DNA of 64,000 nucleotides from Candidatus Woesearchaeota archaeon (GTDB lineage Archaea > Nanobdellota > Nanobdellia > Woesearchaeales > GCA-2686295). How positions within the stretch are numbered: the first letter of the stretch is position 1; every line of letters begins with the position of its first letter. The notes under the pieces are model-generated. The model did not search any database. It saw only the letters and a list, made by a program, of their open reading frames with translations, and had not been told where the DNA came from. Position numbers and translations under genes: made by a program. Location: contig JABMPT010000005.1 in NCBI GenBank assembly GCA_013202845.1, positions 71,308 through 135,307 on the forward strand. Direction: 5' to 3'. Below, in pieces: positions 9,819-56,878 of this stretch.

Positions 9819-9845
9819 TTTAAATACAGACCAATATTTTATTTA

Positions 9846-19838: not shown

Positions 19839-19927
19839 AAGGTGGACTACTAGTACCAGATTTATTAATCTTTCTGAAATCGAAAATTTCAGAAGCCCAT
19901 AAACTTGTTTAAGTATATTTCTGAAAT

Positions 19928-21140: not shown

Positions 21141-21141
21141 T

Positions 21142-28646: not shown

Positions 28647-28739
28647 TTTTATCTATTTAGTAAATGTTCGTTCTAATTTTTTCCCTCAATTTTATTTATT
28701 AATTCATAAAGATTGTCTTTTGATCTTAAGTTTACTTTT

Positions 28740-29783: not shown

Positions 29784-29897
29784 TTATACCTCAAAGAAAA
29801 TTAATAGTCAATAACTTATAAATGTTTCGAGAAAGAATTGTTTTTATCGACGAGCATTTGTAAAAACTAAGTCTACTTTGAAAATATATAAAATAAA

Positions 29898-30890: not shown

Positions 30891-30984
30891 TTTGATTCAG
30901 AGTTTTATTTTACAATAAATTGATTATAACTGTTAAAGCAAAAATATCAAATTTATATATGTTTTTATTTTATACTCTTAACAA

Positions 30985-32595
30985 TCATATTTTGTTCTTA
31001 ATCGCATCAAATATTCTTTGAGAGACTTTATCATCTAGGGAATATAAGTTTTCACGTACAAATTCTTTCAAAAGTTTAACATTATCTTTTCTAGGAAGCT
31101 TATTCTCAACAAACTGGTTTAAAACATCTTTCAGTTTAGATAATTCTTTTATTTTCACACAAAAAACATCATCAGACTCCTTGTAATCATCAATAAAATA
31201 TCTTGAATTTATATCAATGAAATCTAAAAACACAACCGGTTTATTTAACAAAAAAGACTCAATATCCACTGTAGAGCCTAAACTAAGAACCAAATCAGAG
31301 CCGGTTATTAAAGAATACAAATCAGACTTAGAGCGAGATGAATCATGAATAATATTATTCATTGATAAAGCACCAATCACCTTCTCATAATCCTTTATAT
31401 ACTTCTCACGAGGGTGCGACTTCCAGATAAATTCCAAGTCTCCAAAACTTTTGAAAATCTTAAAGAGGTTAGTAATAATTGCAAAATATTCTGCATGCCC
31501 AATAAAATTTGATTCAACAAACGGAGCTGTTATGAACAAAACTTTTTTCACATATTTCCTGTTGTTTGTCTTTGAATAATTCATGAATTTAACAATCTTA
31601 GATAAAAACAAAGCACCTGTAACCTTTATAATATCTTTATCAACACCTAAAGAGATTAATTTATTCTTAAATAATTTTCCTGGAACAAAATACAAGAATT
31701 TATCTGGAGCAAGAGGATTTATTAAAGCAAGACCATATCCATGAAAGGTTCCGCCTAAATAAATATTTTTCTCTTCAGCAGCTGCAGCAGCACACCTTGA
31801 GAATATATCTCCCACAGCTACAGAATAAAGAAATAAAAAATCAATTTTTTCTTTTGATAATATTTCACAATACAATTTGTAATAAAAAATAACAAAGAAA
31901 ATATTTTCTCTTGAAAGATTAAAATTTAACAAAGGCCTCAAAGAGTTAAATATAGCTTCTGCTCTTGAATCTTCAAATTCGACTTTTTTCAAGAAAGTTT
32001 TCTTTTGAGCAGATAATTTTTTTGATAAGTTCCAAGATTCTAATACCAACTTAAAACTTGCATAGGAATATACAATATTTGGGTATTTTATTAATGAGAA
32101 CAAAGAATTTTTTGAAAAAGGTTCAACAACAGAAAGATAGCTCTCAAAACCTTTTGTGCAGTTAACCAATTTTCTCAAATCTTCAGCTCTATCAAGTTCA
32201 AATCCTGACTTCCCTTTTAATAAAGAATTAGTGTGAGATAAAAACATTATTTTCTTCGAGTTTTTTTTATGATTCACAGATTTATTATAAAAAATCTTTA
32301 CTATAAGCCATTTGGATAACTCACTAAATAATAGCAGTTTTTTGTAAAATATAAGTAAAAAAAAAGCTTTTAAATGATATAAGAGTAATGATTTTTTATT
32401 ATTCAATATATTAGTCACATTATTAAAGTTAAGCATTTTAAATGGAACATGCTCTGAAAGCAAAGACATTCTTAAGAACCACCACAAAGAATGATTATCT
32501 ACAAATAAACTTTCTTGAATAGTCTTTCCACTAAATTTAGTTGTTGAAAACTTTTCTAAAAAAGTTATTAAATCATCTTTTTTTATTTTTTGCAT
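30985..32595 (-). CDS. GT-B-like transferase with an HP motif (TagB/TagF CDP-alcohol phosphotransferase-like or sialyltransferase-like); candidate CMP-nonulosonate or phospho-alcohol transferase.
   Basis: C-terminal half ...IWKSHPREKY...SDLYSLITGSDLVLSLGSTVDIESFLLNKPVVFLDF resembles the Glyphos_transf K-x-H-P plus D..ITDYSS..E core and the HP motif of GT52/GT38 sialyltransferases. Confidence 0.45.
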   Translation of the reverse strand: MQKIKKDDLITFLEKFSTTKFSGKTIQESLFVDNHSLWWFLRMSLLSEHVPFKMLNFNNVTNILNNKKSLLLYHLKAFFLLIFYKKLLLFSELSKWLIVKIFYNKSVNHKKNSKKIMFLSHTNSLLKGKSGFELDRAEDLRKLVNCTKGFESYLSVVEPFSKNSLFSLIKYPNIVYSYASFKLVLESWNLSKKLSAQKKTFLKKVEFEDSRAEAIFNSLRPLLNFNLSRENIFFVIFYYKLYCEILSKEKIDFLFLYSVAVGDIFSRCAAAAAEEKNIYLGGTFHGYGLALINPLAPDKFLYFVPGKLFKNKLISLGVDKDIIKVTGALFLSKIVKFMNYSKTNNRKYVKKVLFITAPFVESNFIGHAEYFAIITNLFKIFKSFGDLEFIWKSHPREKYIKDYEKVIGALSMNNIIHDSSRSKSDLYSLITGSDLVLSLGSTVDIESFLLNKPVVFLDFIDINSRYFIDDYKESDDVFCVKIKELSKLKDVLNQFVENKLPRKDNVKLLKEFVRENLYSLDDKVSQRIFDAIKNKI

Positions 32596-32708
32596 CTTTC
32601 GAAAAATATCTTTTGAAAATTAAATTGCTCCTTAATAGCATAGCAAGTTCACATATTTCAATCTAGAAAACAGAAACATATTTAAAAAATCTATTATTTA
32701 TTTACACT

Positions 32709-34259
32709 ATGAAAATCTATATTGTACAGATTGATTATTCTGGATATAATCCAATTGAATTAGTTCTTCCACTTGCGCCATTAATGGTTGGTACGCCTCT
32801 AAAACAAAACGGATTTGAAATTGAAATAGTTCATATTAGTGAAAAAGAGATTAATAAATATGTTAATAAAATAAGTAAAGAAAATCCTTTATTTGTTGGT
32901 TTTTCAGTTATGACTGGAATACAAACGCTACATTCTGCAATTATGTCTAAAGAAATAAAAAAAGTAAGAAAAGATATCACTATTGTATGGGGTGGAGTGC
33001 ATCCTTCAATTTTACCTGATAGTACAATCAAAGCCAATTATGTTGATATAATAGTCAATGGTGAAGGAGAAGAAACAGTTGTTGAACTTGCCAAGCATTT
33101 AAAAGAAAAAAAAGATTTAGAAGAAGTAAAAGGACTTATTTATAAAAAAGGAAGAACAGTTGTAAAAACTCCTAAGAGACCATTCATCATAAATCTTGAT
33201 GATTACACAATAGATTATGAATTGATTGATGTTAATCGATATGCATATACTTCTGGAAAAGCAAAAAGAGTAATTGCATATAGAGCAAGTAGGGGTTGTC
33301 CATTTGACTGTAAATTTTGTTACAATCTTTTATTTAATAACAGAAAAGTCCGAAATTTGTCAGTTGAGAGAGTTGTAAAAGATATTAAATATTTAAAAAA
33401 AAAATATAATATGGATGGAGTAGACTTCTATGATGATCTTTTCTTTACTAACAGAAAAAGAGCAATAGAAATTCTTAAAAAAATTAATATGTATAACACT
33501 TCTGATATAAGAATAGATTTGGTTACTGAAGATTTGGCAAAAGATCTTGTTAAATATAAATCTGAGAATTTACTTATAGGAATGGAATCAGGATCTGATA
33601 GAGTTTTAAATTTGATGTCTAAACGTTGTCCTGTTGAAAAAGCAGAAAGAGGAGTAAGAATTCTATCTAAGTACAGACTAAAAGCCATATATTCATTTAT
33701 GATTGGATTACCAACAGAAACACCTGAAGAAATAAATCAAACTTTAGATTTCATGATGAAAATTAGAAAGATCCATCCAGAAGGAACATTTACTTTGGGA
33801 GTCTATGTTCCATATCCTGGAAGCGACTTATATGAAAGGGCAATAGCTAATGGTTTTAAGGTACCAAAAAATCCTGAAGAATGGGGTGATGTTGAAAGAT
33901 GGAAAAATTTTAAATCACCTTGGATTAACAATGAAGAGGTTTATGTTATAAGAGAGTGTTTTAGATTATTTTCTTTAAATTTATGGCTAATTGATAAAAT
34001 TATGGAAACTAGATTAAAATTTAAATTATTTAAATATCCATTTGAAATATATTTTGTCAATTGGATAATAAGACTTAGTTTAAAACAGACAATACTTGCA
34101 AAAATACTAAGATGGGTACATACTAAAATAACTAGAAAAGAAATGCCTAAATATGATAAAGGTGGAATATTTAGAAGAAAAATAGATAGAGATAAAACAG
34201 AATTTAAGAAAAATGATTTTCGGATGAATCTGGGAAAAGCTCTTCAAAAAAAACAATAA
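32709..34259 (+). CDS. Cobalamin-binding radical SAM enzyme (class B radical-SAM, methyltransferase-like).
   Basis: N-terminal B12-binding Rossmann-like domain. RGCPFDCKFC (CX3CX2C). Length is 516 aa. Confidence 0.75.
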   Translation: MKIYIVQIDYSGYNPIELVLPLAPLMVGTPLKQNGFEIEIVHISEKEINKYVNKISKENPLFVGFSVMTGIQTLHSAIMSKEIKKVRKDITIVWGGVHPSILPDSTIKANYVDIIVNGEGEETVVELAKHLKEKKDLEEVKGLIYKKGRTVVKTPKRPFIINLDDYTIDYELIDVNRYAYTSGKAKRVIAYRASRGCPFDCKFCYNLLFNNRKVRNLSVERVVKDIKYLKKKYNMDGVDFYDDLFFTNRKRAIEILKKINMYNTSDIRIDLVTEDLAKDLVKYKSENLLIGMESGSDRVLNLMSKRCPVEKAERGVRILSKYRLKAIYSFMIGLPTETPEEINQTLDFMMKIRKIHPEGTFTLGVYVPYPGSDLYERAIANGFKVPKNPEEWGDVERWKNFKSPWINNEEVYVIRECFRLFSLNLWLIDKIMETRLKFKLFKYPFEIYFVNWIIRLSLKQTILAKILRWVHTKITRKEMPKYDKGGIFRRKIDRDKTEFKKNDFRMNLGKALQKKQ

Positions 34260-34363
34260 AAATATTTTTTAGTGTAAATTAAACAATTTGCAAAAGAAAG
34301 TTTTTTGGCAAAATTCTTAGAACCATACATAAAAAAGTAAAAATGATATTATTTAATATAACT

Positions 34364-35005
34364 TCAGATTTTTTCAAGTACAAAAAACAAAAAGTTTGGA
34401 GTAAATTTAGGGTTTTCCTCTTTCAAAATTTTAAATCCGCTCTTTTTTATTTCTTCTTTAATTCTTTTTCTGGAATAACCTATTTTTTCGACTTCCCAAT
34501 AGTGTTCACCATTATATTTATGTTTAATAAAAAGTGGTAGTTTAAAATAAAACGCAAATTGTTTGAAGAGAGGAATTTTAATTAAAAAAGAAAACAAAAG
34601 ACTTGGTTGTGGTAAGGAAATAATGAGATATTTTTTTGTTATATTATTAATTCCTATCAAAGTATTTCTAAAATCTTCAAAAGGTATATGCTCTAAAACT
34701 TCAAAACAAAGAACTAAATCAAAACCATTTTTTTTAAATGGTAATTTTCTGATATCTGCAACTATATCAGGAGAAAGCTTCTTATTTAGATCACAAGTTG
34801 TCACTTCATATCCAAAGTTTTTTAAAACAGTGGTTATAGTATTATCACCAATACCTATATTCAAAATTTTCTTTGATTTTAAGGACAAAACATGATTTAT
34901 TTGTGAAAAATAAGAAATCCATCTATTCAAGTCAAGATAATTTCCTACATAAATATCTTTTTCACTATTTATTTTTGATGAGTTTAAGGAATTTTTCACA
35001 TCCAT
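34364..35005 (-). CDS. Class I SAM-dependent methyltransferase.
   Basis: KKILNIGIGDNTITTVLKNFGYEVTTCDLN...FEVLEHI. The start was trimmed to the internal Met (MDVKNS) because the track ORF overlaps the upstream GT4 by 160 nt. Confidence 0.55.
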   Translation of the reverse strand: MDVKNSLNSSKINSEKDIYVGNYLDLNRWISYFSQINHVLSLKSKKILNIGIGDNTITTVLKNFGYEVTTCDLNKKLSPDIVADIRKLPFKKNGFDLVLCFEVLEHIPFEDFRNTLIGINNITKKYLIISLPQPSLLFSFLIKIPLFKQFAFYFKLPLFIKHKYNGEHYWEVEKIGYSRKRIKEEIKKSGFKILKEENPKFTPNFLFFVLEKI

Positions 35006-36095
35006 CTTTTGAACCAAATTTCTTAAATTGTTTAAAACACTCTTTCGATTTAGTTTTATAGTAATCAATATCATCATACTTTTTAATTGTTTGTATCCAA
35101 GTGTCAAAATCACTGTTAGAATCAATTAAATCTCCTGCTCCTCCTACTGCTTCAGGTATACCTCCCTTTTTGTATGATATTGATGGTATACCAAAAATCA
35201 TTGCTTCTAAAGGAACTCTTCCAAAAGGTTCTTCCCATTCAACTGGATTTAAAAGTAATCTTGATTTTAAATATATCTTGTCAATATTTTCTTCCCAGCC
35301 TAGATATTTAACATTGTTCGTTTTTGACATGCGAATAATATTATCCCATTCCATGAATGTATGACCAATTACCAAAAAATGCTCATGTTTTAAATGTGCA
35401 CATATTTTCAAGAAAAGTTTCAAACCTTTCTGTTTCATAGGTGTAACATAAAGAATATATTTATTTTGTTGAGAATTTACTTTTATTATCTTTTTATCAA
35501 TTGTTGGATAAAGTACAAATATATTCTTATTTGTTTTTTCTTGAAAAACCTTTCTTATAAAATCACTATTTGCAATGATAGTATCTGCCATATTGAAGGA
35601 CTTTGAGAATTTTTTCATGTTTAAATTTATAAAAGGATACTGTAATTTATACAAGAAAGGCAAGTCAAGAAATTTTCTTTTATAATTGCTTGGAAGAGTT
35701 TCATAAGGACATAGAAACTTGTAAGACCTTAAAAAAAGACATGCTTTAACACCGTGTTTTTTTGCAACAAAAATAATAGCTGGCGCGGTGTCAAGGTGAG
35801 TTAACAAAAAATCATATTTCTTATTTTTTACATATTTATCCAAAACCTTATACCACCAATTATTTGCAAAAAACACCCATATATGAGATTTCAATAATCG
35901 TAAAAAAAAAGGTGTTTTTATCTTCATTAGATTTATTCCTTTGTAAGTTACGTTTTCGTTTTCTTTTCCAGGAATAATGGCGTCAATTGTGTGACCCTTT
36001 TTTTTCAATTCTACCATTAAGTTTAAAATACTCTTATCTGAACCTCCAGTTATTGGCAACAATGTTCTTGCTGAAAATAAGAATTTCATAGTCAC
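34965..36095 (-). CDS. GT4-like (GT-B) glycosyltransferase.
   Basis: C-terminal EPFGRVPLEAMIFGIPSISYKKGGIPE motif. Confidence 0.65.
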   Translation of the reverse strand: MTMKFLFSARTLLPITGGSDKSILNLMVELKKKGHTIDAIIPGKENENVTYKGINLMKIKTPFFLRLLKSHIWVFFANNWWYKVLDKYVKNKKYDFLLTHLDTAPAIIFVAKKHGVKACLFLRSYKFLCPYETLPSNYKRKFLDLPFLYKLQYPFINLNMKKFSKSFNMADTIIANSDFIRKVFQEKTNKNIFVLYPTIDKKIIKVNSQQNKYILYVTPMKQKGLKLFLKICAHLKHEHFLVIGHTFMEWDNIIRMSKTNNVKYLGWEENIDKIYLKSRLLLNPVEWEEPFGRVPLEAMIFGIPSISYKKGGIPEAVGGAGDLIDSNSDFDTWIQTIKKYDDIDYYKTKSKECFKQFKKFGSKDGCEKFLKLIKNK

Positions 36096-36123
36096 AAAAC
36101 AGAATAAATGTATTTAAATACTT

Positions 36124-36753
36124 CTATTTAATAGCATAAACTACAAAACCACAAGGAAAATTTGTTTTTTTTGACCTTATCATCGCAATTACAGGATTAA
36201 AGATATTCAAAAACACACATCTTACTCCTTTATAATTAATCATATGCCATAAAGATTGTATAAGATTTCCATGATGATGTATGTCTATCTTGCTAAACTT
36301 TTTGAATAAAAGATTTAAGGAATCCCAAGTAAATCTATAATAATCATGAGGATGTGGATGATAAGGATGTATAAATCTTGTTGAAAGTATACACACACCT
36401 CCAGGTTTTAAAATCCTATAAATCTCACTTACAACCTTAACAGGATCATGACAATGTTCCAAAACTTCTGTAGCTAATACAACATCAAAATAGTCTGATT
36501 TACATTTAATATCATGAATATCACAACAAATATCTGGTTTGCTATTCTTATCTATATCTAATCTAAGATATTTTTTGAAAGGTGATTTCTTCTTATAAGG
36601 TGAATCACTTGAACCCACATCTAATATAATGCCTGGTTTTAATTTTTTGAATAAAGTATGTAATTCATAATCAAGACCTATTCTGCTAACAGACCTTATT
36701 CTAAGAGTGAAAGCAAACGGTAAGATGTATCTTCTAAAAAATGATTTCTCCAT
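36124..36753 (-). CDS. Class I SAM-dependent methyltransferase.
   Basis: IILDVGSSDSP...ATEVLEHCHDPVKVVSEIYRILKPGG. Confidence 0.65.
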   Translation of the reverse strand: MEKSFFRRYILPFAFTLRIRSVSRIGLDYELHTLFKKLKPGIILDVGSSDSPYKKKSPFKKYLRLDIDKNSKPDICCDIHDIKCKSDYFDVVLATEVLEHCHDPVKVVSEIYRILKPGGVCILSTRFIHPYHPHPHDYYRFTWDSLNLLFKKFSKIDIHHHGNLIQSLWHMINYKGVRCVFLNIFNPVIAMIRSKKTNFPCGFVVYAIK

Positions 36754-36870
36754 TTTCTCAAATTTTTAAACCTCGAGTTTTAATCATTAATAATGTATTT
36801 ATATATTTTATGTAAACCTTTTTATTTCAACAAAACTTTATAAATGAATAATTAAATCTTAAAAAATAAA

Positions 36871-37944
36871 ATGACAGAAAAAGTATCAGTTATTATACTA
36901 ACATGGAACCAGATGGATATTACTATTAGTTGCGTGAAAAGTGTTTTGAAGCAAGATTATAATAATTTTGAAATTTTAATAGTGGACAATGGTTCAACAG
37001 ATAATTCAATTGAGATTTTTGAAAAAGAGTTTGGAAAAAATAAGAAAATAAGTATTTACAATACTAAAAAGAATATTGGCTATGCAGGAGGAAACAACTT
37101 TGGTGTAAGACATGCAAAAGGAAAGTATTATGTCGTTCTGAACAATGACACTCTTGTTGAGAAGGATTGGCTAAAAGAATTGGTTAAAGCAGTAAAATCT
37201 GAAAAAAATATAGGCGCAGTCTCAGCCTTTGAATATAAATATGAAGGTGAAAAATGCATTAACAAAGGATTAGTCACAAATGCTACTGTTCTATATCATG
37301 AAGCTAATGGAAAGAATATAAAATATTACAAAGACTGGGATTATAAAGAAACATTCGGATTAAGAGGTGGCTCTTTTATTGTGAGAAAAGATATTGCTAA
37401 TCCTCCTTTTGATCCAGAGTACTTCATTTACGCTGAAGACTCATATTTAGGGTGGAAACTTAGATTGATGGGTTATAAAAATTTGCTTTCATTCAAAGCA
37501 ATAGTACATCATTACCATAACGCAGTAAGAAGAAAGAACAAACAGATGGATAAATATTTTTCATTTCTTGGAGAGAGAAATCATACAATGAATGTTTTTC
37601 TTTTTTATGAAAGAAAAAATCTAATAAAAATATTGCCAATTCTAATAATGAGCAAATTATTCATCAATATTTACAAACCTTCGAAAATATTGCCTCGTAT
37701 GAAAGCATACACTTGGTTAATACTTAATGCTAAAAAAGTATTGAAAAAAAGAAAACAAATCCAAAAAGTAAGAACCATTGGTGATGAAAAGGTTCTTTCT
37801 ATGCTAAGTGGAATATTCTATTCTGAAGATATAATAAGGAAACCGATTCTGAAAAAAGTAATCAGGTTTTTGAATTTTATTTGTTTGAAATACTGCCAAT
37901 TAGTAAGGTTAAAGACATCAGAATTCTCCAACACAAAGAGTTAA
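36871..37944 (+). CDS. GT2 glycosyltransferase.
   Basis: VSVIILTWNQMDITISCVKSVLKQDY...ILIVDNGSTD...LNND. Confidence 0.75.
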   Translation: MTEKVSVIILTWNQMDITISCVKSVLKQDYNNFEILIVDNGSTDNSIEIFEKEFGKNKKISIYNTKKNIGYAGGNNFGVRHAKGKYYVVLNNDTLVEKDWLKELVKAVKSEKNIGAVSAFEYKYEGEKCINKGLVTNATVLYHEANGKNIKYYKDWDYKETFGLRGGSFIVRKDIANPPFDPEYFIYAEDSYLGWKLRLMGYKNLLSFKAIVHHYHNAVRRKNKQMDKYFSFLGERNHTMNVFLFYERKNLIKILPILIMSKLFINIYKPSKILPRMKAYTWLILNAKKVLKKRKQIQKVRTIGDEKVLSMLSGIFYSEDIIRKPILKKVIRFLNFICLKYCQLVRLKTSEFSNTKS

Positions 37945-37959
37945 ACTATTTAGTTCAAT

Positions 37960-39495
37960 CTATCTTTTCAAGATTTTACGAATTAAATTAGAAAATTCTT
38001 TTATTGTAGCAATTCTTAGTAGAATTATTAATATAAGGTATACAATTATTGATATTGATGAAAAAACAATTAACTCCAACCAAGGATTGAGCTCTAGAAC
38101 TTTTCTTAGTAAAAATATTATCAAAACAAAAATCAAACCTGCAAATAGAGTCTTAAGCCACATTTTTATAGGGAATTTTAAAGTTATTATTTTTGACATT
38201 TTTATTGTTCCAAATAGGAATATAGTGAAATAACTAAAAGAAGTAGCTATAGCAGCACCAACAATTCCTAATATAGGTATTAAAACAAAATTTAAAACAA
38301 GATTTAAAATGCTAGCTATTAAGAACATCTTCGTAATATCTTTTGGTCTTCCAATACCTGCCAAAATAGAGTTGTTTATGACTGCAAGTGTATAAAAGAA
38401 AGCGCCAAAAAGAAGTATTTGTAATGCGATGGATCCTGCAACATATTCTTGTCCAAAAAAGAATCTTAAGAATAATTTTGAAAAAGAAAATAACACTAAC
38501 AAAAAAGGTAGGCTGAATATTAATGAATATTTGTGAATTAGATAATTATAATCTCTTAGTTCCTTTTTCTTTTTAAGAGTCCATAACTCACTACTTATTG
38601 GAAAGAGTACACTTCCTGAAGCATGACCAAATATAAAAAGAAGCGTTGCTGTAGGAAGAATAATATTATATACTCCTACTTCTTCAAGAGAACGGAAAAA
38701 AGTCAGCATTATTGTATCCATTCTAGCAATTATCAAACCACCAACAGAAGCTAATAGGATTGGAATTCCAAAAGAAAACAATTTCTTAGCAAGAGAAAAA
38801 GATTTTACAAATTTGTATTTGGAAAATTTGAAGTTTCTAAGTAAAATAGGCCACATTATCAAAGTAGTTATTAAAGCTCCTAGAAAAAAGCTTATTGCAG
38901 GAGATTTGTAATCAAATTTTGTTAACAAAAAAAAAACTATTAGAACTAATGGAACTGTATTCTTCATGAAATTTCTGAGAGAATACATAAAAAAATTCTG
39001 AAGTGCGTAAAGCATGAAAAAAATGGTATCTTGAAACACAGACACTATTAGCCATCCTAAAACAAACCAAAGAACTACCTTTGCTCTGGGATCTCCAAAA
39101 TAATGTAATGCAAGAAAATCATTTATAAAAAATATCACTATAGTAAACAAAGCTACAGAAAACAGTTGTATCATCAAAACATAAAAAAAAGAGGTTTTGA
39201 TTTTAGCAAACTCTTTCTTTACTTTATATTCTGAAACGAATTTTATTAGAGCTCCTCCAAGACCCAAATCTTTGAAAATAGAGAAAAACCCAACAAACGC
39301 AAACACTGAATAAAACAAACCAAAGTCTTTCACAGACAAGTTTCTAGCTAACAAGAACCTCAAAATATATCCTGAGATTGCTGCCATAATTGAAAATATA
39401 AAAATATAGCTAGCTCCTTTCACAATTCTTTTTCCAACATCACTCATGACTACCGATAATGGAACTCGACTTTTAAAAGTATCTATTAGAAACAA
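37960..39495 (-). CDS. MOP-superfamily oligosaccharide flippase (Wzx/polysaccharide biosynthesis protein).
   Basis: About 14 TM helices, 511 aa, typical PF01943-like organisation. Confidence 0.7.
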   Translation of the reverse strand: MFLIDTFKSRVPLSVVMSDVGKRIVKGASYIFIFSIMAAISGYILRFLLARNLSVKDFGLFYSVFAFVGFFSIFKDLGLGGALIKFVSEYKVKKEFAKIKTSFFYVLMIQLFSVALFTIVIFFINDFLALHYFGDPRAKVVLWFVLGWLIVSVFQDTIFFMLYALQNFFMYSLRNFMKNTVPLVLIVFFLLTKFDYKSPAISFFLGALITTLIMWPILLRNFKFSKYKFVKSFSLAKKLFSFGIPILLASVGGLIIARMDTIMLTFFRSLEEVGVYNIILPTATLLFIFGHASGSVLFPISSELWTLKKKKELRDYNYLIHKYSLIFSLPFLLVLFSFSKLFLRFFFGQEYVAGSIALQILLFGAFFYTLAVINNSILAGIGRPKDITKMFLIASILNLVLNFVLIPILGIVGAAIATSFSYFTIFLFGTIKMSKIITLKFPIKMWLKTLFAGLIFVLIIFLLRKVLELNPWLELIVFSSISIIVYLILIILLRIATIKEFSNLIRKILKR

Positions 39496-49043: not shown

Positions 49044-50159
49044 ATGAAAGGAATAGTTATAACAGACAAAGGATTAGAAGAAACAGCTTTAAAAGAAATA
49101 GTTGAGAAAATAAAATCAAAAGGGAAAATAGAAGAAACAGTTGTGAAGTTCGAAATAAAAAAAGAAGAAGAATTATGCAAATTGGCTTATACTTGCCAAT
49201 CACTAAGAAGAGTTTTACTGTTGTTTAAAGAATTTAAAGTTGAGAAGAAACTTGAAAAAAACATTGCTTTAATAAAAAAAATTAACTTGAAAAAATACTC
49301 TTCTGAAAAAGTTTCTGTTGAATGTGAACGCTATGGAGAACATAGTTTCAATAGCGTAGATTTTGCAAGAGAAACTAGTAAAATATTGGATGACAAGGGT
49401 TTTAAAGTTTTGAGAAAAGAGAATGATCTCATTTTCTATGTGTACATATACAATAACAAAGGATACTTCTGCTTAGATTTTTCTGGCAGAGATCTCAGCA
49501 AAAGGAATTACAGAATATTCACAAAGCCAGGCTCACTTAAGGGAACCCTCGGATTCGGTCTTGTGAAGATGTCAGGATACAAGGTTGGAGAAATTATTGT
49601 TGATCCATATTGCGAGTCAGGAGTTATACCTATAGAAACAGCATTATTTGCAAGTAAGAAGCCAGTTAACTTTTACAAAAAAGAGTTTGCTTTTAAGAAA
49701 ATAAACAAAAACTATGAGAAGATTTTTGAAAAAGAGGATAAAAAAACAAAAAAGAAAGTCAAAGATATATACGCCTTAGACAAAACATTGAAGAACATAA
49801 CCGACTCAAAGAAGAATGCAAAAATAGCAGGTGTTGACAAAAACATTAATTTTTCAAAAGCAGAAATTGAGTGGCTAGACACTAAGTTTGAAAAAGAGTC
49901 TGTTGATAAAATAGTCACAAAACTTCCTTCAGAATCAAAAAAACTATCCCAAAAAGTAATTGGAAAAATATATCAAGAAATGTTCTACCAAGCAGAATTC
50001 GTACTGAAGAAGAAAGGTGTTATGGTTATTTGCACTATGAAAAATGGCTTGCTGAAACAACTCAGCGACAAGAAAAACTTTGAAATAGTTGATGAAAAAA
50101 AGATGTTCTCTGGACAGCAAGAATACTTTATCACTATTTTCAAAAAAGTTTATAAATAA
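49044..50159 (+). CDS. THUMP-domain RNA methyltransferase-like protein (Trm14/RlmL/Trm11-like).
   Basis: N-terminal THUMP-like fold and VDPYCESGVIPIE (motif I, D-P-x-C-G-S-G-like). No clear (D/N)PPY catalytic motif was found downstream. Confidence 0.45.
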   Translation: MKGIVITDKGLEETALKEIVEKIKSKGKIEETVVKFEIKKEEELCKLAYTCQSLRRVLLLFKEFKVEKKLEKNIALIKKINLKKYSSEKVSVECERYGEHSFNSVDFARETSKILDDKGFKVLRKENDLIFYVYIYNNKGYFCLDFSGRDLSKRNYRIFTKPGSLKGTLGFGLVKMSGYKVGEIIVDPYCESGVIPIETALFASKKPVNFYKKEFAFKKINKNYEKIFEKEDKKTKKKVKDIYALDKTLKNITDSKKNAKIAGVDKNINFSKAEIEWLDTKFEKESVDKIVTKLPSESKKLSQKVIGKIYQEMFYQAEFVLKKKGVMVICTMKNGLLKQLSDKKNFEIVDEKKMFSGQQEYFITIFKKVYK

Positions 50160-50189
50160 TTAATTCTATAAATTTCTAGGGGTGAAAAC

Positions 50190-50642
50190 ATGTATTGCGA
50201 TATGTGCGGGAGTGACGGAGAGTTATTCAAATGTAGAATTGAGAACACAGAGCTCAATGTCTGCAATATCTGCAGCCAATATGGAGAAGTAATCCACAAA
50301 ATAAAAGCGCCTGAACCTGAAACACCAAAGCCTGTTTCTAAGCCTTTAAAGAGAAGTGAGGTAATTCAAATAATAATACCAAATTATTTTAAAATAGTCA
50401 AGAACAAAAGGGAATTTATGGGCCTAAAGCAAAAAGAGCTTGCCAAGAAAATAGCTGAGAAAGAGTCAGTAATCCACAACATAGAGTCCGGACATATGGA
50501 ACCAAACATGGATTTGGCAAGGAAACTTGAGAAATTTCTTAATGTAAGACTTGTAGAGCAATACGAAGAAAAAGGAAAAGTTATTGCAACAGAAGATACA
50601 GGACCTCTAACAATAGGTGATTTGATTAAGATCAAAAAATAA
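50190..50642 (+). CDS. Archaeal multiprotein bridging factor 1 (aMBF1): N-terminal Zn-ribbon plus C-terminal HTH-XRE.
   Basis: CDMCGS...CNIC Zn-ribbon. HTH KQKELAKKIAEKESVIHNIESG. A GGGGTGA SD precedes the ATG. Confidence 0.75.
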   Translation: MYCDMCGSDGELFKCRIENTELNVCNICSQYGEVIHKIKAPEPETPKPVSKPLKRSEVIQIIIPNYFKIVKNKREFMGLKQKELAKKIAEKESVIHNIESGHMEPNMDLARKLEKFLNVRLVEQYEEKGKVIATEDTGPLTIGDLIKIKK

Positions 50643-50682
50643 AGGAAACATTTAAATCAAAATAAAATTCTAAATAACTAAC

Positions 50683-51945
50683 TTGAAAATCAACTATTTA
50701 TCTCAAGATATAATAATGAATCTTGGAATTATCTTATTCTTCACAATCTTCTTTTTATTGACAATCATTCTTGTTATCTCAATAACCTCATTTTTCATCA
50801 AAAAAAAGACTAAAAAGTTCGAGCCAAGTATCAGTGTCATAATTCCGAGCTACAACGAAGAAAAAAACATAAAGAATTGTATAAAGCACATCTTGAACTC
50901 TAACTATGACGCTAATAAATTGGAAATAATATGTGTGGACGATGGCTCAACAGATAATACCATCAATATTATAAAAGATTTAATAAAAAAATATAGTAAT
51001 ATAAAACTAATAAAAGGAAAGCACCATGGTAAATCAAAGGCTCTTAATCTTGGAGTGGAAAGAGCAAAACATGATTATGTTCTGACTGTTGATGCAGACA
51101 CTCTTTTAGATAAGAATTTCATTAAAGAAATAATAGCTCCTTTTTCTGATAAAAAAGTTGGTGCAACTAATGGCATTGCATTAATAGATAAACCTAAAAG
51201 AATTGTTGAACATTTTCAAACTGTAGAATACTACTTTAACAACTTGATAAGGCATTCATTTTCAAAAGTGTTTAATAATGGAATATGGTTTTTTGGAGCT
51301 GCAGCATGTTTCAAAAAAGACGTTTTGAAGAAAGCAGGTTTATTCAGTAGCAGAGTGCTAACAGAGGATATGGACATATCACTGAAAATCTTTGAACATG
51401 GTTATGATGTTCTGACTGTAAGAAAAGCTACCTACTATACACAGGTATGTCATAATTTGAAAACATTGTTCTCTCAAAGAATGAGATGGTTTTATGGAGG
51501 TTTGCAATGTTCTTTCAAACATAGAAAATTATGGAAAAGAAAGGTTTTTTCAATAAAATACCTCTTCTTTAATCAAATCTTTTGGGCCTTCTTCTCAGTA
51601 ATCGTTATTCCAACAATAATATATCAGGTAAACTATTGGATGCCTTCAGGAGCAAGAGAAATACTAGCTTACTTGTTTCGATGGTTCAGCTTGTCAGGAC
51701 CTATATACGTACTATATAAAATCCCTGAATGGGGTTTGTCTCTTATCAACATCTTCGGAGTTATGGCAGGAATATTAACATTCATCTTAATAAATATCGC
51801 AGTGATAAGATTCAAAGGAAAATTAAATCTTCAGAAATTATTAGTGGCTTTTTTCTATTTTCCTTACACATTAATACTCAATCTCATACTAACAACCGCT
51901 ATATTTAGATATACTTTCTCTAGAAAGAAGCACTTCAAGAAATAA
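50683..51945 (+). CDS. Membrane-embedded processive GT2 synthase (QxxRW; PgaC/NodC/HasA/CesA-like).
   Basis: One N-terminal TM helix. SVIIPSYNE...CVDDGSTDNT...TVDADT...TEDMD...QRMRWFYGG. Four C-terminal TM helices. Confidence 0.75.
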   Translation: MKINYLSQDIIMNLGIILFFTIFFLLTIILVISITSFFIKKKTKKFEPSISVIIPSYNEEKNIKNCIKHILNSNYDANKLEIICVDDGSTDNTINIIKDLIKKYSNIKLIKGKHHGKSKALNLGVERAKHDYVLTVDADTLLDKNFIKEIIAPFSDKKVGATNGIALIDKPKRIVEHFQTVEYYFNNLIRHSFSKVFNNGIWFFGAAACFKKDVLKKAGLFSSRVLTEDMDISLKIFEHGYDVLTVRKATYYTQVCHNLKTLFSQRMRWFYGGLQCSFKHRKLWKRKVFSIKYLFFNQIFWAFFSVIVIPTIIYQVNYWMPSGAREILAYLFRWFSLSGPIYVLYKIPEWGLSLINIFGVMAGILTFILINIAVIRFKGKLNLQKLLVAFFYFPYTLILNLILTTAIFRYTFSRKKHFKK

Positions 51946-51946
51946 T

Positions 51947-52234
51947 CTAAAAGACTACTTCACAAGTAACCCTTCTATACATATAGACAACGCCAAAAAT
52001 AACAGATCCAATAAATGTTGTTAAGCTAATAATAAGAGCGACTATAGCATAACCCATTCCACCATATTTTTCAGGATTTAAATTAATCTGTCTTAGTGCT
52101 CTAATAGCCAAAAACAATGATGCTAGAGAAAGTCCTATATTCAATAAAGGAATCCAAAATCCCAAACTCAGTATGAAAGATAGTATCGCGTTAAACCTGT
52201 CCTTTTTTGTTTTGGTATTCTTTTTAGTTGCCAT
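51947..52234 (-). CDS. Small basic membrane protein (DUF4190-like).
   Basis: Start taken at the internal Met (MATKKNTKTKK). Two hydrophobic helices. Located between the two QxxRW synthase genes. Confidence 0.35.
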   Translation of the reverse strand: MATKKNTKTKKDRFNAILSFILSLGFWIPLLNIGLSLASLFLAIRALRQINLNPEKYGGMGYAIVALIISLTTFIGSVIFGVVYMYRRVTCEVVF

Positions 52235-52239
52235 TTTAA

Positions 52240-53604
52240 TCAAGAGGATACTTTTGTAACATTTCCTTTCTTCGCAAGCATAAACCATTGCATTTCTCTG
52301 TTGAATATTGCTTTGAAAACCCCTATAGTTACTGTGTAGATGACTAGAAGACCCACACTAAAAGAAGCAACTATCAATCTATTCACTTCCTTGAATTTCT
52401 TACTAAGTTTTAGAATTACTATACTTGTAAACAGATAACCTGAAGTTAGTAGAATATTTCTTCCAGTTTCTGAAAAGAACTTGGCCCAATCAATTGGTTG
52501 TGGCTCATTTGTAATTATAGACAAAAAGCCTAAAAGTGCTAACAAAAAGAAGAACAAGGTAACTAAATAACCAGACCCTAGCAGAAGAGGATTAAATTTC
52601 CATCTTGCTGAAATCTTTCTACTGAACAAAATTGGCAGTAAATGGGTTTTAAGAGCAGAAATAACTCCATAAGCCCACCTCATCTGTTGCTTACATAAAT
52701 CTTTGACAGTAAATGGTGATTCGCAATCACATTGCAGAGTCTCTAGATATACTATCCTCCTTCCTGCACGCGTTAATCTTAAAGAACACTCTATATCTTC
52801 TGTTAACGCCCCACTTTTCCAACCGCCGAGTTTTATAAGTGTTTTTTTTCGTATAGCTTCTGCAGAACCAGCTATGAAACCATTACTTTTCATGAAATTC
52901 AAGAAAGGAAGACCTAACCGATGTGAAAACATAGGTATTATTCCCCCTATTATTGATGAAAAGTTCTGTGAAAAGTTCTTTATAGCCCACCTGGATTGAA
53001 CAGCGTCAACTGTCGAATCATTGACAAAAGGAGCTATTATCCTTTTTAGGAAATCCTCTTTGGGTAGAAAATCAGAGTCAAAGACAACTATGAACTCCCC
53101 TCTTGTATATTTCAGCATATGATTAAGGTTTCCTGGTTTAAAACCTATGTTTAAACCTCTTCTTGTGACCTTAACCAAGTTGTGCATTGAAGCAAACTCA
53201 TTTATCTTCTTAGAAACTGTTTTATCAGAGCTGTCATCACCTATTATCATCTCATATCTGTTCTTAGGATAATCAAATTTTAAGCATTTTTTAGCACAAT
53301 TTATGGCTGCCAACTCATTATAAGTAGGAATCTGTATAGTGACAAAAGGATACTTCGATCCTCTGAAAGGTTCTTCTTTTGGCTTCTTCTTAAAAGAAAC
53401 GATTATTGACATTAAAAAATGCATGAATGTCATAACAATAGTTATGTATAGAATTATATTGAATGCGCTTTTAAAAAAAACATGTAAAAAATTCAATACA
53501 TTTCTAGAATAAAGTGTAAAAAAGTTGAAAGTCATATCTCCAAAAAACTCGTAATACTGGAAAATATTGCTTGAAATCGAATTCAGGACTTCTACTATCA
53601 CCAT
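52240..53604 (-). CDS. Membrane-embedded processive GT2 synthase (QxxRW), second paralog.
   Basis: VTIQIPTYNE...IIGDDSSD...VVFDSDF...TEDIE...QQMRWAYG. TM helices at the N- and C-termini. Confidence 0.7.
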   Translation of the reverse strand: MVIVEVLNSISSNIFQYYEFFGDMTFNFFTLYSRNVLNFLHVFFKSAFNIILYITIVMTFMHFLMSIIVSFKKKPKEEPFRGSKYPFVTIQIPTYNELAAINCAKKCLKFDYPKNRYEMIIGDDSSDKTVSKKINEFASMHNLVKVTRRGLNIGFKPGNLNHMLKYTRGEFIVVFDSDFLPKEDFLKRIIAPFVNDSTVDAVQSRWAIKNFSQNFSSIIGGIIPMFSHRLGLPFLNFMKSNGFIAGSAEAIRKKTLIKLGGWKSGALTEDIECSLRLTRAGRRIVYLETLQCDCESPFTVKDLCKQQMRWAYGVISALKTHLLPILFSRKISARWKFNPLLLGSGYLVTLFFFLLALLGFLSIITNEPQPIDWAKFFSETGRNILLTSGYLFTSIVILKLSKKFKEVNRLIVASFSVGLLVIYTVTIGVFKAIFNREMQWFMLAKKGNVTKVSS

Positions 53605-53674
53605 TTTAAATCTTTTTCAGGACGTTGAATAAGCACAGGGTCTATATAAATTTAACCAAAAAAGCTTTTTATTG

Positions 53675-55087
53675 TCAACTATATAAAACCTCCCATACCT
53701 GAATTCCTTTATTAGCCCATAATCTGTCAAAATCAGGACTGTTTTCAATTAGAAACAAGAGTCCTTCTCCTTCGCGTTTCCAGATAAGTCCTTTTTTCAT
53801 CTCTTCAGTTATCAGTAAATATTTTACATTTCCTTCTATTAATAATGTTTTTGTAGTTTCTAGATTCCTAGAATAGAATATTCTTTGTTCTACATCTTTC
53901 AAGATAAAATAATTGTCTTGATTTACTGAATAATCATCCAAAAAACTCTTTTGTGAAGAGAAATACTCTATGAAATGACCATAACTCTGATGAGAAAGAA
54001 CAACTTCTTCTGGTTTAGCTTCTAAGAAAGCCAAAGCGCTTAGAAGTTCTTTTTTAGGCTCTGAGTTGATGACTTGATCTACATATAAAGCTGTGGAAAA
54101 AATAACTATACAAAGAATTAATAAAAGAGTAAACTTTTTTATTAACTGAATAGCCCACGTTCTTTTGATAAGAAAAAATATGGTTATGCTTGAAAATATG
54201 CATAAGTAGAAATTGAAATATATTCTTCCAGCCACATTAAAAAGTGAAAAAAGAAAGACAATTAAAAGCGAGATTAAAAGGTAGAGAAATTCTCTTTTTC
54301 GTTTCCAAACCATGAATAAACCTATTACACCTAAAAAGAAGTAGAAAAAAGCTATGCCTGCCTTAGCGCCAAAAGAAGTGAAGTAATTAGTAAAAGAAGG
54401 ATTCATAAACAAGTTTTGGAACATTTGGAATCCTTCATGAAGATATCCAAATAGGAAGAATGAAATTACAGAAGGAATTGCATTCATCAAGAATATCTTC
54501 TTGTCCCCTTCATAAAAATAATAGCTAATTATCAAAATCAGATTCAAAAGGAAAACAGAAGAATCTGTTATTGAAACAAGTATTAAGAAAGGTACTGAAA
54601 AATAATTCTTTTTTATAAACAAATACATAAATATCAAAGAAAATACTGTTGCCAGAGAAAAAGTGCTTGGTATAGTGAACAAGTAGATGAATATAGGTGA
54701 CAAAGCAAACAAAAGGCTTGAGATTATCACTAAATTTCGCTCGTCAAGAAATTCATTCAATATCAAATAGAGAAAAATCAATGATATAATTCCTAAGATT
54801 ATAGAAAAACCAATTAATAGGTTTGTATTTTCAAAAGACATAAATAATGATAACAAATAATGATAAAAAGAAATTTTATGAGGTCTATCTTGTGAATAAT
54901 CCCAGTAAATTCCTTTTGATAAGTCTTCTGAAGCTCTCAAGTCATAATAGAATTCTCCACCTGTGAATAAAGGATCTTGATTCAAGTGCCTTACTGTGAA
55001 AGGGATGAGAAGTAATAATAAAGCTGAAACTACTAGAGCAATTAATTCAATTTTTTTTCTTAATTTTTTTTTCATTATATTGAGCAA
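53675..55087 (-). CDS. Polytopic membrane protein, putative GT-C-fold glycosyltransferase (PMT/ArnT/STT3-like), paralog 1.
   Basis: About 11 TM helices. The first-loop acidic motif LNQDPLFTGGEFYYD. C-terminal soluble domain of about 120 aa. Confidence 0.45.
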   Translation of the reverse strand: MLNIMKKKLRKKIELIALVVSALLLLLIPFTVRHLNQDPLFTGGEFYYDLRASEDLSKGIYWDYSQDRPHKISFYHYLLSLFMSFENTNLLIGFSIILGIISLIFLYLILNEFLDERNLVIISSLLFALSPIFIYLFTIPSTFSLATVFSLIFMYLFIKKNYFSVPFLILVSITDSSVFLLNLILIISYYFYEGDKKIFLMNAIPSVISFFLFGYLHEGFQMFQNLFMNPSFTNYFTSFGAKAGIAFFYFFLGVIGLFMVWKRKREFLYLLISLLIVFLFSLFNVAGRIYFNFYLCIFSSITIFFLIKRTWAIQLIKKFTLLLILCIVIFSTALYVDQVINSEPKKELLSALAFLEAKPEEVVLSHQSYGHFIEYFSSQKSFLDDYSVNQDNYFILKDVEQRIFYSRNLETTKTLLIEGNVKYLLITEEMKKGLIWKREGEGLLFLIENSPDFDRLWANKGIQVWEVLYS

Positions 55088-56553
55088 TGAACCCTGTATA
55101 TTTTTATTGACTCATTAAAAGCAAGATCAAAACAATCTGGGTCGGTGTAATAAATTTTTTCCTCAGTTCCAAATTTGCCTGAAAAATACAGATAATCAAC
55201 ACCATATTTATTCAGTCTTCTTACAGCTTCTGTTTTTAATCTCAAAGAAAAGACTGATTGCACATCTTCATACCTCTGTTGAGAATCTTCAACAAGCAAA
55301 AAATCCTGATCAATAACTGTTTTTCTATTTGCAAAATAATTTATCATATAACCTTCTTCCAAACGAGCAAGCACCACATCATTTGTTCCTGTGTTGTCTT
55401 TTAACCATTCCATTGCCTTTAGTTCTGAATCTGAAGGAACTGCCTTTAATGACGAGAGAGCTAAATTAAAACTTGGAATGACCGCTGTTAAAACAAATAC
55501 CAAACACACACCCACTAAAAACCACTTAGCAGAATGAGGTGCTTTTGTTTTTCTAAAATAGGAATACAATAGTTTAATTGAATGACTTGATAAGAGCACA
55601 AGCATCAAACTGAGAAATATCAAACCTATCTTGAATTCAACAAGTTTTAGCCACAAGAGTAGAAGTATTGACAGGAACATGCTCAGAACCATGAAAACAC
55701 TTCTCCTTTTTGTTATGAAAAGAACATGATATATTGCATAAATTCCAAATACTATTGGAACAATTCCAACATAGTATATGCTCTGGATTATGTTCAGATC
55801 AAAGAAGTAATTAGTCAATATCTGAAGAGGTATGTTCCGCCATATTACAAGAGGACCATGAATGAGAAAAGCTTTTTTATAGATTATGAAATTAAACCAC
55901 AGTACCAAAAAGCTAGTGAATAGAATCAATTCGGTCTCTTTTTTCCCAACTTCTAATGATTCCACTCTTAACAATAACAAGAATAGTAGAAGTCCTGCTA
56001 TTAGAAGAAAAGCAGATGCATGTGAAAACACAAGTATTACTATGAACAGCAAAGAGAGCTTCAGATACAAGTTTTCTTCGATTCTCATGATAAAATAAAG
56101 AGCAAACAACATTACTAAAACAACCAATGAGTAGACAGACAAATCATTTATTGTAACAAAGAAAATAGGGATAAATCCTGAAAAGAAACTTGAAATAAGA
56201 GATACTGAGCGTAGCTTTGTTATGTGATAAGATATCAAGTAAACAGCTACAACTACGAGAGATGATAACAAGTTTGGAATTATCTTTGCAGCCAAACCTG
56301 TTCCCAAAAAACTAAAAAAAGCAACTAAGTAATAAAAAAGTGGTGGAAACAAATGTGTTCTGCCACCATAGCTCAGAGGATCATCAAACAAAGGAAAACC
56401 TTCTTGGTTTATATTCTCTATTTGTCTTAATGCAAAATAAGCTTCATATGAGAATTCATCTGTCTGTAAGGAGATTATCGTTCTAGAGAAAAACGTGAGA
56501 AAAAATATTATCAAGAGCAAAAGAACTGCTGTAAATTTTTTCATAATAATCAA
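55075..56553 (-). CDS. Polytopic membrane protein, putative GT-C-fold glycosyltransferase, paralog 2 (tandem with the previous gene).
   Basis: About 11 TM helices. The first-loop LQTDEFSYEAYF (DE motif). C-terminal soluble domain. 13-nt overlap with the downstream paralog. Confidence 0.45.
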   Translation of the reverse strand: MIIMKKFTAVLLLLIIFFLTFFSRTIISLQTDEFSYEAYFALRQIENINQEGFPLFDDPLSYGGRTHLFPPLFYYLVAFFSFLGTGLAAKIIPNLLSSLVVVAVYLISYHITKLRSVSLISSFFSGFIPIFFVTINDLSVYSLVVLVMLFALYFIMRIEENLYLKLSLLFIVILVFSHASAFLLIAGLLLFLLLLRVESLEVGKKETELILFTSFLVLWFNFIIYKKAFLIHGPLVIWRNIPLQILTNYFFDLNIIQSIYYVGIVPIVFGIYAIYHVLFITKRRSVFMVLSMFLSILLLLWLKLVEFKIGLIFLSLMLVLLSSHSIKLLYSYFRKTKAPHSAKWFLVGVCLVFVLTAVIPSFNLALSSLKAVPSDSELKAMEWLKDNTGTNDVVLARLEEGYMINYFANRKTVIDQDFLLVEDSQQRYEDVQSVFSLRLKTEAVRRLNKYGVDYLYFSGKFGTEEKIYYTDPDCFDLAFNESIKIYRVHCSI

Positions 56554-56584
56554 ATAAAAAACAGATTATTAAAAAGTTTCTGAA

Positions 56585-56878
56585 TTAATCCTCTTCAGGA
56601 TTGTATGAAGGCACTGCTGATTTACTGATTATTATTATATCTCCAATACTCTTGACAAGCTGATGAGGAACAATAACTCCTTTCGCAGCCCCTAGAACCT
56701 TGTTTAGAAATGAACTCTTGGTAGCCTTAACTCTCCAACCAAACACTTTGTTGCTTGTCAGAATAGCCTCTTCAACATCACCAAAGTAATCTCCGCTGTC
56801 AGTGAACACTCTCATATCAAAAGTCTCTGTTATTTTTTTCATTTTAAGCATCATATCACCTTCCAAAAGTTGTAACAA
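56585..56878 (-). CDS. PRC-barrel domain protein.
   Basis: About 90 aa with FTDSGDYFGDVEEAIL...VFGWRV, a typical archaeal PRC-barrel pattern. Confidence 0.45.
   Translation of the reverse strand: MLQLLEGDMMLKMKKITETFDMRVFTDSGDYFGDVEEAILTSNKVFGWRVKATKSSFLNKVLGAAKGVIVPHQLVKSIGDIIIISKSAVPSYNPEED

Follow-up and report, generated by a model that had tools for sequence, protein, structure and literature searches.

A fixed pair of STT3-like GT-C proteins without oligosaccharyltransferase motifs, encoded beside synthase-type GT2 glycosyltransferases, in a Woesearchaeota genome

A stretch of 64,000 nucleotides from Candidatus Woesearchaeota archaeon (GenBank assembly GCA_013202845.1, contig JABMPT010000005.1, positions 71,308 to 135,307 of the forward strand), called the window here, carries at positions 50,683 to 56,553 two membrane glycosyltransferases of family 2 (GT2-A and GT2-B), a small protein with two transmembrane (TM) helices, and two tandem multi-TM proteins, X and Y, of the GT-C type. 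The locus belongs to a lineage-wide module in which synthase-type GT2s are securely paired with a fixed, STT3-derived GT-C pair, and the window holds a minority version of that module, one with a cassette of two GT2s and the small protein. Family profiles and structure models indicate that X and Y are paralogs of ancient origin, derived from the STT3/AglB oligosaccharyltransferase (OST) lineage, and it is secure that the pair cannot act as a canonical N-oligosaccharyltransferase. The most probable role of the pair is to make or modify a glycan of the cell surface. An earlier note on this DNA, made by reading the letters alone, had listed the first five of the following open reading frames (ORFs), and all five are present where it placed them.

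55075..56553, minus strand: Y, 492 aa (probably 489 aa, starting at M4)
53675..55087, minus strand: X, 470 aa (probably 466 aa, starting at M5)
52240..53604, minus strand: GT2-B, 454 aa
51947..52234, minus strand: small 2-TM protein, 95 aa from M19 (the maximal ORF reaches 52288)
50683..51945, plus strand: GT2-A, 420 aa (probably 409 aa, starting at M12 at 50716)
56585..56878, minus strand: small protein with a PRC-barrel, encoded 31 nt upstream of the Y gene

At NCBI, identical copies of X and Y are deposited under the locus tags HQ533_02495 and HQ533_02500, on a 641-kb contig. Compared directly by BLASTP, they match each other marginally (E 0.013); when their family profiles are aligned, the match covers their whole length (probability 100, E 1.9e-40), so that the paralogy is real, as the earlier description of tandem paralogous 11-TM proteins had it, and old. 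AlphaFold models built from alignments of 40-43 sequences (pLDDT 93.9 and pTM 0.92 for Y; pLDDT 92.9 and pTM 0.90 for X) give each protein about 11 TM helices followed by a C-terminal alpha/beta domain, which in Y spans residues ~375-492. Foldseek searches of the models against the PDB gave the following scores (TMq).

STT3, AglB and PglB: Y 0.63-0.77, X 0.52-0.71
DPY19: Y 0.66-0.68, X 0.35-0.51
AftA: Y 0.56, no match listed for X
ArnT: Y 0.53-0.59, X 0.53-0.54
PMT: Y 0.33-0.52, X 0.32-0.50
Transporters: Y ~0.12, X 0.10 (AdeJ efflux pump)

The best match of Y is STT3 (8age_A, 0.77), and those of X are the same STT3 chain (0.71) and PglB. The C-terminal domain resembles the short Archaeoglobus AglB paralog AfAglB-S2 (3vu0; TMt 0.63-0.66), and at the sequence level the family profiles of X and Y also match STT3A and PglB, as well as the C-terminal domain of AfAglB-S2 taken by itself. 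The models thus point to a GT-C fold rather than a transporter, as had been supposed. The supposed kinship with PMT and ArnT is not upheld, since STT3, AglB and PglB are nearer than either.

Family models recognise little of this. No Pfam or NCBIfam model matches X or Y significantly; Pfam STT3 (PF02516) matches neither of them nor any of 83 family members, among which the AglB/STT3 core-domain models find 2-3 weak matches. PMT_2 (PF13231) does not match X or Y of the window, and no MIR domain was found in either. Weak PMT_2 matches do occur in 22 of 43 Y-family members (best 4e-9), which explains the GT39 labels in GenBank.

Helices of the models together with the positive-inside rule suggest a topology in which 11 TM helices lead from an inner N-terminus to an outer C-terminus. 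The conserved residues of external loops 1, 2 and 4 (EL1, EL2, EL4) and the C-terminal domain would then face outward, and the conserved E198 and E208 of Y would be cytoplasmic. The C-terminal domain of Y also has a conserved Cys474/Cys490 pair. Across the same span of genomes X evolves much faster than Y (30% versus 40% identity).

In characterised OSTs, an EL1 aspartate (D56 in PglB) is essential, as are the DxD/E motif of EL2 and the glutamate of EL5, which hold the metal and the acceptor amide; the WWD motif binds the sequon's +2 Ser/Thr, and WWDxG and DxD/E are retained in all of these enzymes (PMC7226087). The window's own AglB (4377-7238; PF02516 at 1e-50) has DPYFYYR, DTD and WWDFG (at 605) intact. 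An hhalign comparison of the Y family with this single AglB sequence (probability 9%) served only to locate the DTD region.

Set against these motifs by profile alignment, Y retains the frame of EL1, with E-A-Y-F-A-L-R ... D-x-L-S-Y-G-G-R where STT3 has F-D-P-Y-F-N-Y-R ... D-R-A-W-Y-P-L-G-R. In this motif (Y39..R43..E46..D58-x-L-S-Y-G-G-R65), residues Y39, R43, E46, D58, L60, S61, G64 and R65 are 86-100% conserved, D58 in 100%, so that the conserved acids of the loop are E46 and D58. The D166xE168 of STT3 (D-N-E) aligns to S-x-Y in Y (N136..S139 here), in columns 136-141 that are 0-9% acidic, and WWDYG aligns to L-E-E-G (LEEGY), within a family pattern (R/S)(L/V)EEG[YHF] of which the Gly alone is conserved. 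X likewise lacks WWD and any conserved acid at the EL2 position, and has SHxx[YN]G at the position of WWDxG, again with conservation of the Gly alone. In its EL1, D63 is 90% acidic, and E45, which the sequence alignment puts at the position of the catalytic Asp, is 85% acidic. Of the first-loop acidic motifs picked out by eye, 'QDP...GEF' is upheld only in the Glu of 'GEF', which is E45 of X, and the acids of 'QTDEF' (D32 and E33) are not conserved, being acidic in 37% and 19% of sequences. X and Y have therefore lost the sequon-binding motif and the DxD/E metal site, and have kept a conserved outward-facing EL1/EL2/EL4 surface and an AglB-like C-terminal domain. The absence of WWDxG and of the EL2 motif makes them STT3-derived enzymes that are not OSTs, or else pseudoenzymes.

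In a profile search of 1.84 billion representatives, clustered at 50% identity, at least 685 proteins belong to the Y family at E 1e-30 or better. When GTDB species genomes were scanned with a 14-sequence alignment, 80 loci were returned and analysed by ORF calling and hidden Markov models (HMMs), with 73 informative for the gene after Y and 68 having at least 1.5 kb downstream. All 80 belong to Woesearchaeota, Nanoarchaeota or other DPANN metagenome-assembled genomes, the closed AR15 chromosome included. In 73 of 73 loci with enough contig to show it, the gene directly after Y is X, and a QxxRW synthase-type GT2 lies within 6.5 kb of the pair in 55 of 68 (81%). The most common arrangement, found in 44 of the 68, has one GT2-A-like synthase-type GT2 and a ~230-aa protein downstream of Y-X; the ~230-aa protein or proteins occur without a GT2 in 8, the cassette of the window (GT2-A, GT2-B and the small protein) in 7, other GT2 combinations in 4, and none of these genes in 5. 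The gene set, which had been called unusual for an archaeon, is thus the norm in Woesearchaeota and Nanoarchaeota, and it is the window's cassette that is in the minority.

Several observations accompany this survey. In one locus (L066:8482-9865) the X gene is split into ORFs of 94 aa and 340 aa, by a frameshift or an assembly error. One Y-X pair (P0006/P0105; NCBI ACFLTH_16385/16390, on a 6.3-kb contig), with a Y 66% and an X 52-53% identical to those of the window, is labelled 'Bacteroidota bacterium', and many of the GTDB loci carry the label 'uncultured Methanosarcinales'; wrong binning or labelling of DPANN contigs is the probable cause. The cluster often ends with a third GT-C, one of the PMT_2 type (PF13231, 49 bits; 21 loci, e.g. 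L038:13920-15341 and L003:12841-14244), which is missing from the window's site, and the ancestral module may thus comprise three enzymes of the GT-C type.

A single TM helix at the N-terminus and a thioredoxin fold with CxxC make up the ~230-aa protein, which stands beside Y-X in 52 of 68 loci (e.g. L012:11170-11886 and L019:11117-11815). When its family profile is compared with thioredoxins, they match at 8.6e-7 and both the CxxC and the cis-Pro line up, and some loci bear a second version of about 700 aa. By tblastn, the gene is absent from the window. As an alternative to a role like that of Ost3/Ost6, the protein may oxidise the Cys474/Cys490 pair of Y.

Both GT2s match PF00535, PF13641 and PF13632 (E 1e-17 to 1e-33), and the set of D, DxD, TED and Q(R/Q)MRW motifs with flanking TM helices that had been read by eye in each is present and conserved in its family. 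In GT2-A these are D87 (DDG), D137xD139 (DAD), E228D229 (TED) and Q265RxRW269 (QRMRW), at least 90% conserved among 39-53 relatives, with one N-terminal and ~3-4 C-terminal TM helices by hydropathy. GT2-B, which is 29% identical to GT2-A, has DD123-124, KxGNLN156-161 (KPGNLN), D176xD178 (DSD), T268ED270 and Q306QxRW310 (QQMRW), each at least 95% conserved among 112 homologs, as well as QSRW and GS motifs, with ~2 N-terminal and 3 C-terminal helices. It aligns to BcsA of E. coli and Rhodobacter over residues 55-319, a span that covers DD, KxGNxN, DxD, the GS segment, TED and QxxRW. After its last helix comes W440-x4-K445, at least 95% conserved or invariant in the same 112 homologs, with the spacing of a gating loop and non-canonical residues; its position and spacing are those of the BcsA gating loop FxVTxK. 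A PilZ domain, not seen by eye, is not matched in either protein by the Pfam scan. The sequences thus assign GT2-B to the BcsA/CslA-type synthases, and its family is widespread and well conserved in DPANN, with 983 clusters at E 1e-10 or better, of which the best 120 are 49-81% identical to it.

For GT2-A the class is drawn from its family profile, which spans the interface/TM region of BcsA (104-462), HAS1 (205-463) and chitin synthase (367-650) and covers only the first ~100 residues, in the N-terminal half, of enzymes of the DPMS and ArnC type. This reach puts the family in the synthase class rather than the polyprenyl-phosphate GT2 class. GT2-A and GT2-B are thus both predicted to be inverting, membrane-embedded, synthase-type GT2s with complete catalytic motif sets, and the membrane-integrated synthase class proposed for them is supported by the BcsA alignment in one case and by the profile over the TM region in the other. 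Neither, to judge from scores below the equivalog cut-offs, is the equivalog of a characterised synthase. The nearest named family of GT2-A is PgaC/IcaA (TIGR03937), and GT2-A was rejected as the poly-N-acetylglucosamine (PNAG) synthase itself (173 bits against a cut-off of 422); GT2-B scores best among NCBIfams with CelA, and was rejected as the bacterial cellulose synthase BcsA (113 bits against 699, and no PilZ), and it reaches 104 bits with TIGR03937, also under 422. An HMM of the GT2 that usually accompanies Y-X gives 232 bits with GT2-A and 113 bits with GT2-B, so that GT2-A is likely the counterpart of the usual partner, and GT2-B with the small protein is the extra element.

The small protein, with two TM helices and a Lys-rich N-terminus by hydropathy, agrees with the 95-aa basic membrane protein described before when it is read from M19, its likely start. 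It has a weak, sub-threshold match to DUF4190, and family scans detected no PgaD/IcaD homology. A reading of it as what is left of the thioredoxin-like partner gene was rejected. Its homologs in relatives (85-114 aa) directly follow GT2-B, often with a 4-nt overlap, and a few genomes have the order small protein, GT2-A, GT2-B. The trio of GT2-A-like protein, GT2-B and small protein recurs both beside Y-X and elsewhere (L089, L090 and L091), and thus travels as a cassette. By analogy, the small protein is a putative accessory subunit of the PgaD/IcaD kind. In another Woesearchaeota genome the trio (L089:2618-5265) adjoins a complete set of GtrB-like GT2, GtrA and PMT_2 genes, a neighbourhood that fits decoration of the trio's product from outside by a GT-C.

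Within the window, Y, X, GT2-B and the small protein form a minus-strand operon on which the plus-strand GT2-A gene converges. The stop of Y and the likely start of X overlap in TAATG; X, which ends at 53675, is separated from GT2-B by 70 nt, and the stop of GT2-B from the start of the small protein by 5 nt. The operon may begin with the PRC-barrel ORF, and in close relatives an 88-aa ORF occupies its position upstream of Y. Upstream, GT2-A is preceded by genes for an MBF1-like Zn-ribbon/HTH protein and for a UPF0020 methyltransferase, whose synteny is kept in close relatives and which are probably unrelated to the glycosylation genes.

Taken together, these results have led to a model, held with somewhat less than even confidence, in which the GT2s make and export a beta-glycan while Y and X act on the outer face of the membrane. 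In this model, GT2-B with its co-translated small protein, and GT2-A, would use cytosolic nucleoside diphosphate sugars to build a beta-linked glycan, and pores formed by their own TM helices would let it pass. A heteromer of X and Y would use a sugar or glycan linked to dolichyl phosphate as donor and some group that is not the asparagine of N-x-S/T as acceptor, most likely the nascent surface glycan or a Ser/Thr of surface proteins. The catalytic base would be D58 of Y, or E45 or D63 of X.

A number of findings weigh against this model. The profile of GT2-A also matches ceramide glucosyltransferase (1e-9 to 1e-11) and the archaeal PcManGT, neither of which is known to make a polymer, and HpnI and CruG are matched as well. 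QxxRW enzymes include non-processive lipid glycosyltransferases, ceramide glucosyltransferase among them, so processivity is something that we infer for GT2-A and GT2-B, and nothing comparable to a gating loop was recognised in the GT2-A sequence. What points to the Y-X heteromer is adjacency and translational coupling alone. In addition, the locus has no GtrA or other flippase and no DPMS-type GT2 to supply a dolichyl-phosphate sugar (the GtrA family has no match among the ORFs of 49044-56878). The link of GT2s to Y-X is strong and not obligatory, as the 8 loci with the thioredoxin-like protein and no GT2 and the 5 with neither attest. Finally, the Y column that aligns with the catalytic EL1 Asp of OSTs is 60% acidic (E37 here), and the sequence alignment puts a column that is 47% acidic at the EL5 Glu; the Asp of the TDxG motif in X, which aligns to E319 of PglB, is 75% acidic and is Ser in the clade of the window (TSFG). 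One or both of X and Y could be non-catalytic.

The lipid glycosyltransferase matches lend themselves to another reading, in which the GT2s would be non-processive enzymes that act at the cytoplasmic face on dolichyl phosphate or a membrane lipid, and the flipped product would serve as donor or anchor for the GT-C pair, in a variant of the 'three-component' logic or of lipoglycan assembly. GT-C enzymes use donors linked to polyprenyl phosphate, and the GT2 that makes the donor is usually encoded next to them, as in GtrB/GtrC, ArnC/ArnT and AglD/AglS; a GT2 stands beside the same 81% of Y-X pairs noted above. Both GT2-A and the common partner GT2 match GT21, ceramide glucosyltransferase, HpnI and CruG, which share the D,D,D,QxxRW signature, and the archaeal membrane mannosyltransferase PcManGT (6yv7) is strongly matched by the GT2-A family profile. 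However, that profile extends over the interface/TM part of BcsA, HAS and chitin synthase, and in DPMS and ArnC it covers only the first half; GT2-B retains the BcsA-type KxGNxN, GS and C-terminal W-x4-K; a GtrA-like flippase is missing from the locus; and the presence of two different GT2s and a small subunit in the window is left unexplained. Donor supply by the GT2s, the chief rival of the model above, is judged unlikely.

A bolder version of the outer-face model would make X and Y an unrecognised, DPANN-confined branch of STT3, a heterodimeric and metal-independent transferase whose glycan, made by a synthase or linked to dolichol, would go to an acceptor other than Asn (for instance Ser/Thr of surface proteins or a lipid anchor), with the Ost3/6-like thioredoxin assisting in most genomes. 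This is rather improbable; if true, archaea would have, for the first time, a candidate machinery with which to glycosylate their surface in an O-linked or lipoglycan-type manner.

X and/or Y might instead be inactive pseudoenzymes that serve as a membrane scaffold or chaperone, perhaps one that holds the synthase or what it makes, or one that is a partner of AglB. Y has degenerate residues at three of the four acid positions of the OST active site, invariant polar residues are few in X, which also evolves much the faster of the two, and the conserved E198 and E208 of Y, if they are cytoplasmic as the predicted topology has it, could dock a partner. On the other hand, the invariant outward EL1 of Y (D58, R43, R65) and the EL2/EL4 residues, kept across at least 685 representatives, are typical of an active site, and a single EL1 carboxylate suffices for GT-C enzymes in general. 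Loss of activity seems a distinctly poor explanation.

It is very unlikely that X and/or Y are alternative N-oligosaccharyltransferases, comparable to AfAglB-S1/S2, with a divergent sequon and metal site. Their closest folds and sequence matches are indeed STT3, AglB and PglB, the C-terminal domain is nearest to AfAglB-S2, EL1 is like the 'DPYFNYR...WYPLGR' of STT3, and the CxxC thioredoxin-like protein beside most pairs recalls Ost3/6; but WWDxG and DxD/E are missing from both whole families, Pfam STT3 matches no member, the TM helices number 11 rather than 13, and the window already encodes a canonical AglB. The version put forward in the earlier note, in which enzymes of PMT/ArnT type make an O-mannosylation-like modification and a homopolymer similar to chitin, PNAG or cellulose is formed as well, could draw on the weak PMT_2 matches in the Y family, the GT39 label that NCBI gives to some members, and PgaC/IcaA and CelA as best named GT2 families, but is highly unlikely, given window proteins with neither PMT_2 match nor MIR domain, a structural similarity to PMT and ArnT clearly below that to STT3, an unconserved loop-1 'DE', and GT2 scores far under their cut-offs.

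Other glycan genes surround the module in the window. Of the further GT-C enzymes that had been counted there, AglB is bona fide, and the protein at 7900-9129 is a GT-C of the GT87-like type. That gene opens a group (7900-11573) in which the GT87-like protein (409 aa) is directly followed by a short GT2 with PF00535 only (230 aa) and a carbamoyltransferase of the NodU/CmcH type; it looks like a separate, classical pair of GT2 and GT-C. The region 14555-24032 is a cluster of the nonulosonic-acid type (PseB/Polysacc_synt_2, a DegT aminotransferase, UDP-GlcNAc 2-epimerase, and NeuB fused to a CMP-transferase) and contains four folate genes, namely FolD, serine hydroxymethyltransferase, 5-formyl-tetrahydrofolate cyclo-ligase and a formyltransferase, which suggests that it makes an N-formylated sugar. 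Beside AglB, positions 193-2803 encode a phosphoenolpyruvate phosphomutase-cytidylyltransferase fusion, a second cytidylyltransferase and a LicD-family protein, which suggests decoration of glycans with a phosphonate, e.g. 2-aminoethylphosphonate. The stretch 28000-38000 has a G+C fraction of 0.26-0.29, against 0.30-0.36 elsewhere, and carries radical SAM/SPASM, B12-radical SAM and methyltransferase genes; a 418-aa ORF at 24019-25275 has no Pfam match. This stretch may be a variable island of glycan modification.

As members of a familiar superfamily the GT2s are unremarkable, whereas X and Y form a large unnamed STT3-like family without OST motifs. In the searchable literature on AglB paralogs without WWDYG, on DPANN glycosylation enzymes and on cellulose-synthase-like genes of DPANN, no description of this family was found. 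Its proteins should be annotated neither as GT39/PMT nor as AglB paralogs, and at least 685 representatives are without a Pfam model. Since Y and X are adjacent in essentially every Woesearchaeota genome sampled, the pair is unlikely to be dispensable. The tiny genomes and host-attached life of DPANN archaea make surface chemistry central to their biology, in which it is almost unexplored. If the pair is active, it would be an STT3 scaffold re-purposed for another acceptor, and a concrete candidate for archaeal surface glycosylation that is not N-linked, the enzymes for which are not known.

Compared with known systems, X and Y share with STT3, AglB and PglB (GT66) the GT-C fold, in which an alpha/beta 'core' domain at the C-terminus follows a domain of many TM helices; EL1 is similar to DPYFNYR...YPLGR, and the G and the downstream D of 'WWDYG...VD' are conserved. 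They differ in having neither WWD nor the EL2 DxD/E, in a partly acidic EL5 Glu position, in ~11 TM helices instead of 13, in a length of 470-490 aa, in the absence of Pfam STT3, and in being a fixed tandem pair on top of a canonical AglB. The CxxC thioredoxin-fold membrane protein next to the STT3-like pair in 52 of 68 related loci recalls eukaryotic Ost3/Ost6, but it has one N-terminal TM helix rather than four C-terminal ones, the likeness found lies in the thioredoxin fold, and the gene is not in the window. Like PgaC-PgaD and IcaA-IcaD, the cassette combines a GT2 (GT2-A) that has D, DxD, TED, QRxRW and TM helices at both ends with a small 2-TM protein; here, in contrast, the small protein is coupled to GT2-B rather than GT2-A and shows no detectable homology with PgaD or IcaD, and both a deacetylase or porin like PgaB/PgaA and cyclic di-GMP control are lacking. 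GT2-B shares DD, KxGNxN, DxD, GS, TED and QxxRW with BcsA and with short GT2s of the CslA/CslC kind, but is half the size of BcsA, has no PilZ and no BcsB partner, and reaches 113 bits where CelA demands 699. Finally, although its GT2s are of the QxxRW synthase type rather than the GtrB/DPMS type and its GT-C proteins are STT3-derived and duplicated, the locus is like GtrB/GtrA/GtrC, ArnC/ArnT, CsbB/YfhO and the AglD/AglS of Haloferax in that a membrane GT2 gene adjoins GT-C genes, and the likely logic is the same: activation of the sugar in the cytoplasm and its transfer at the outer face.

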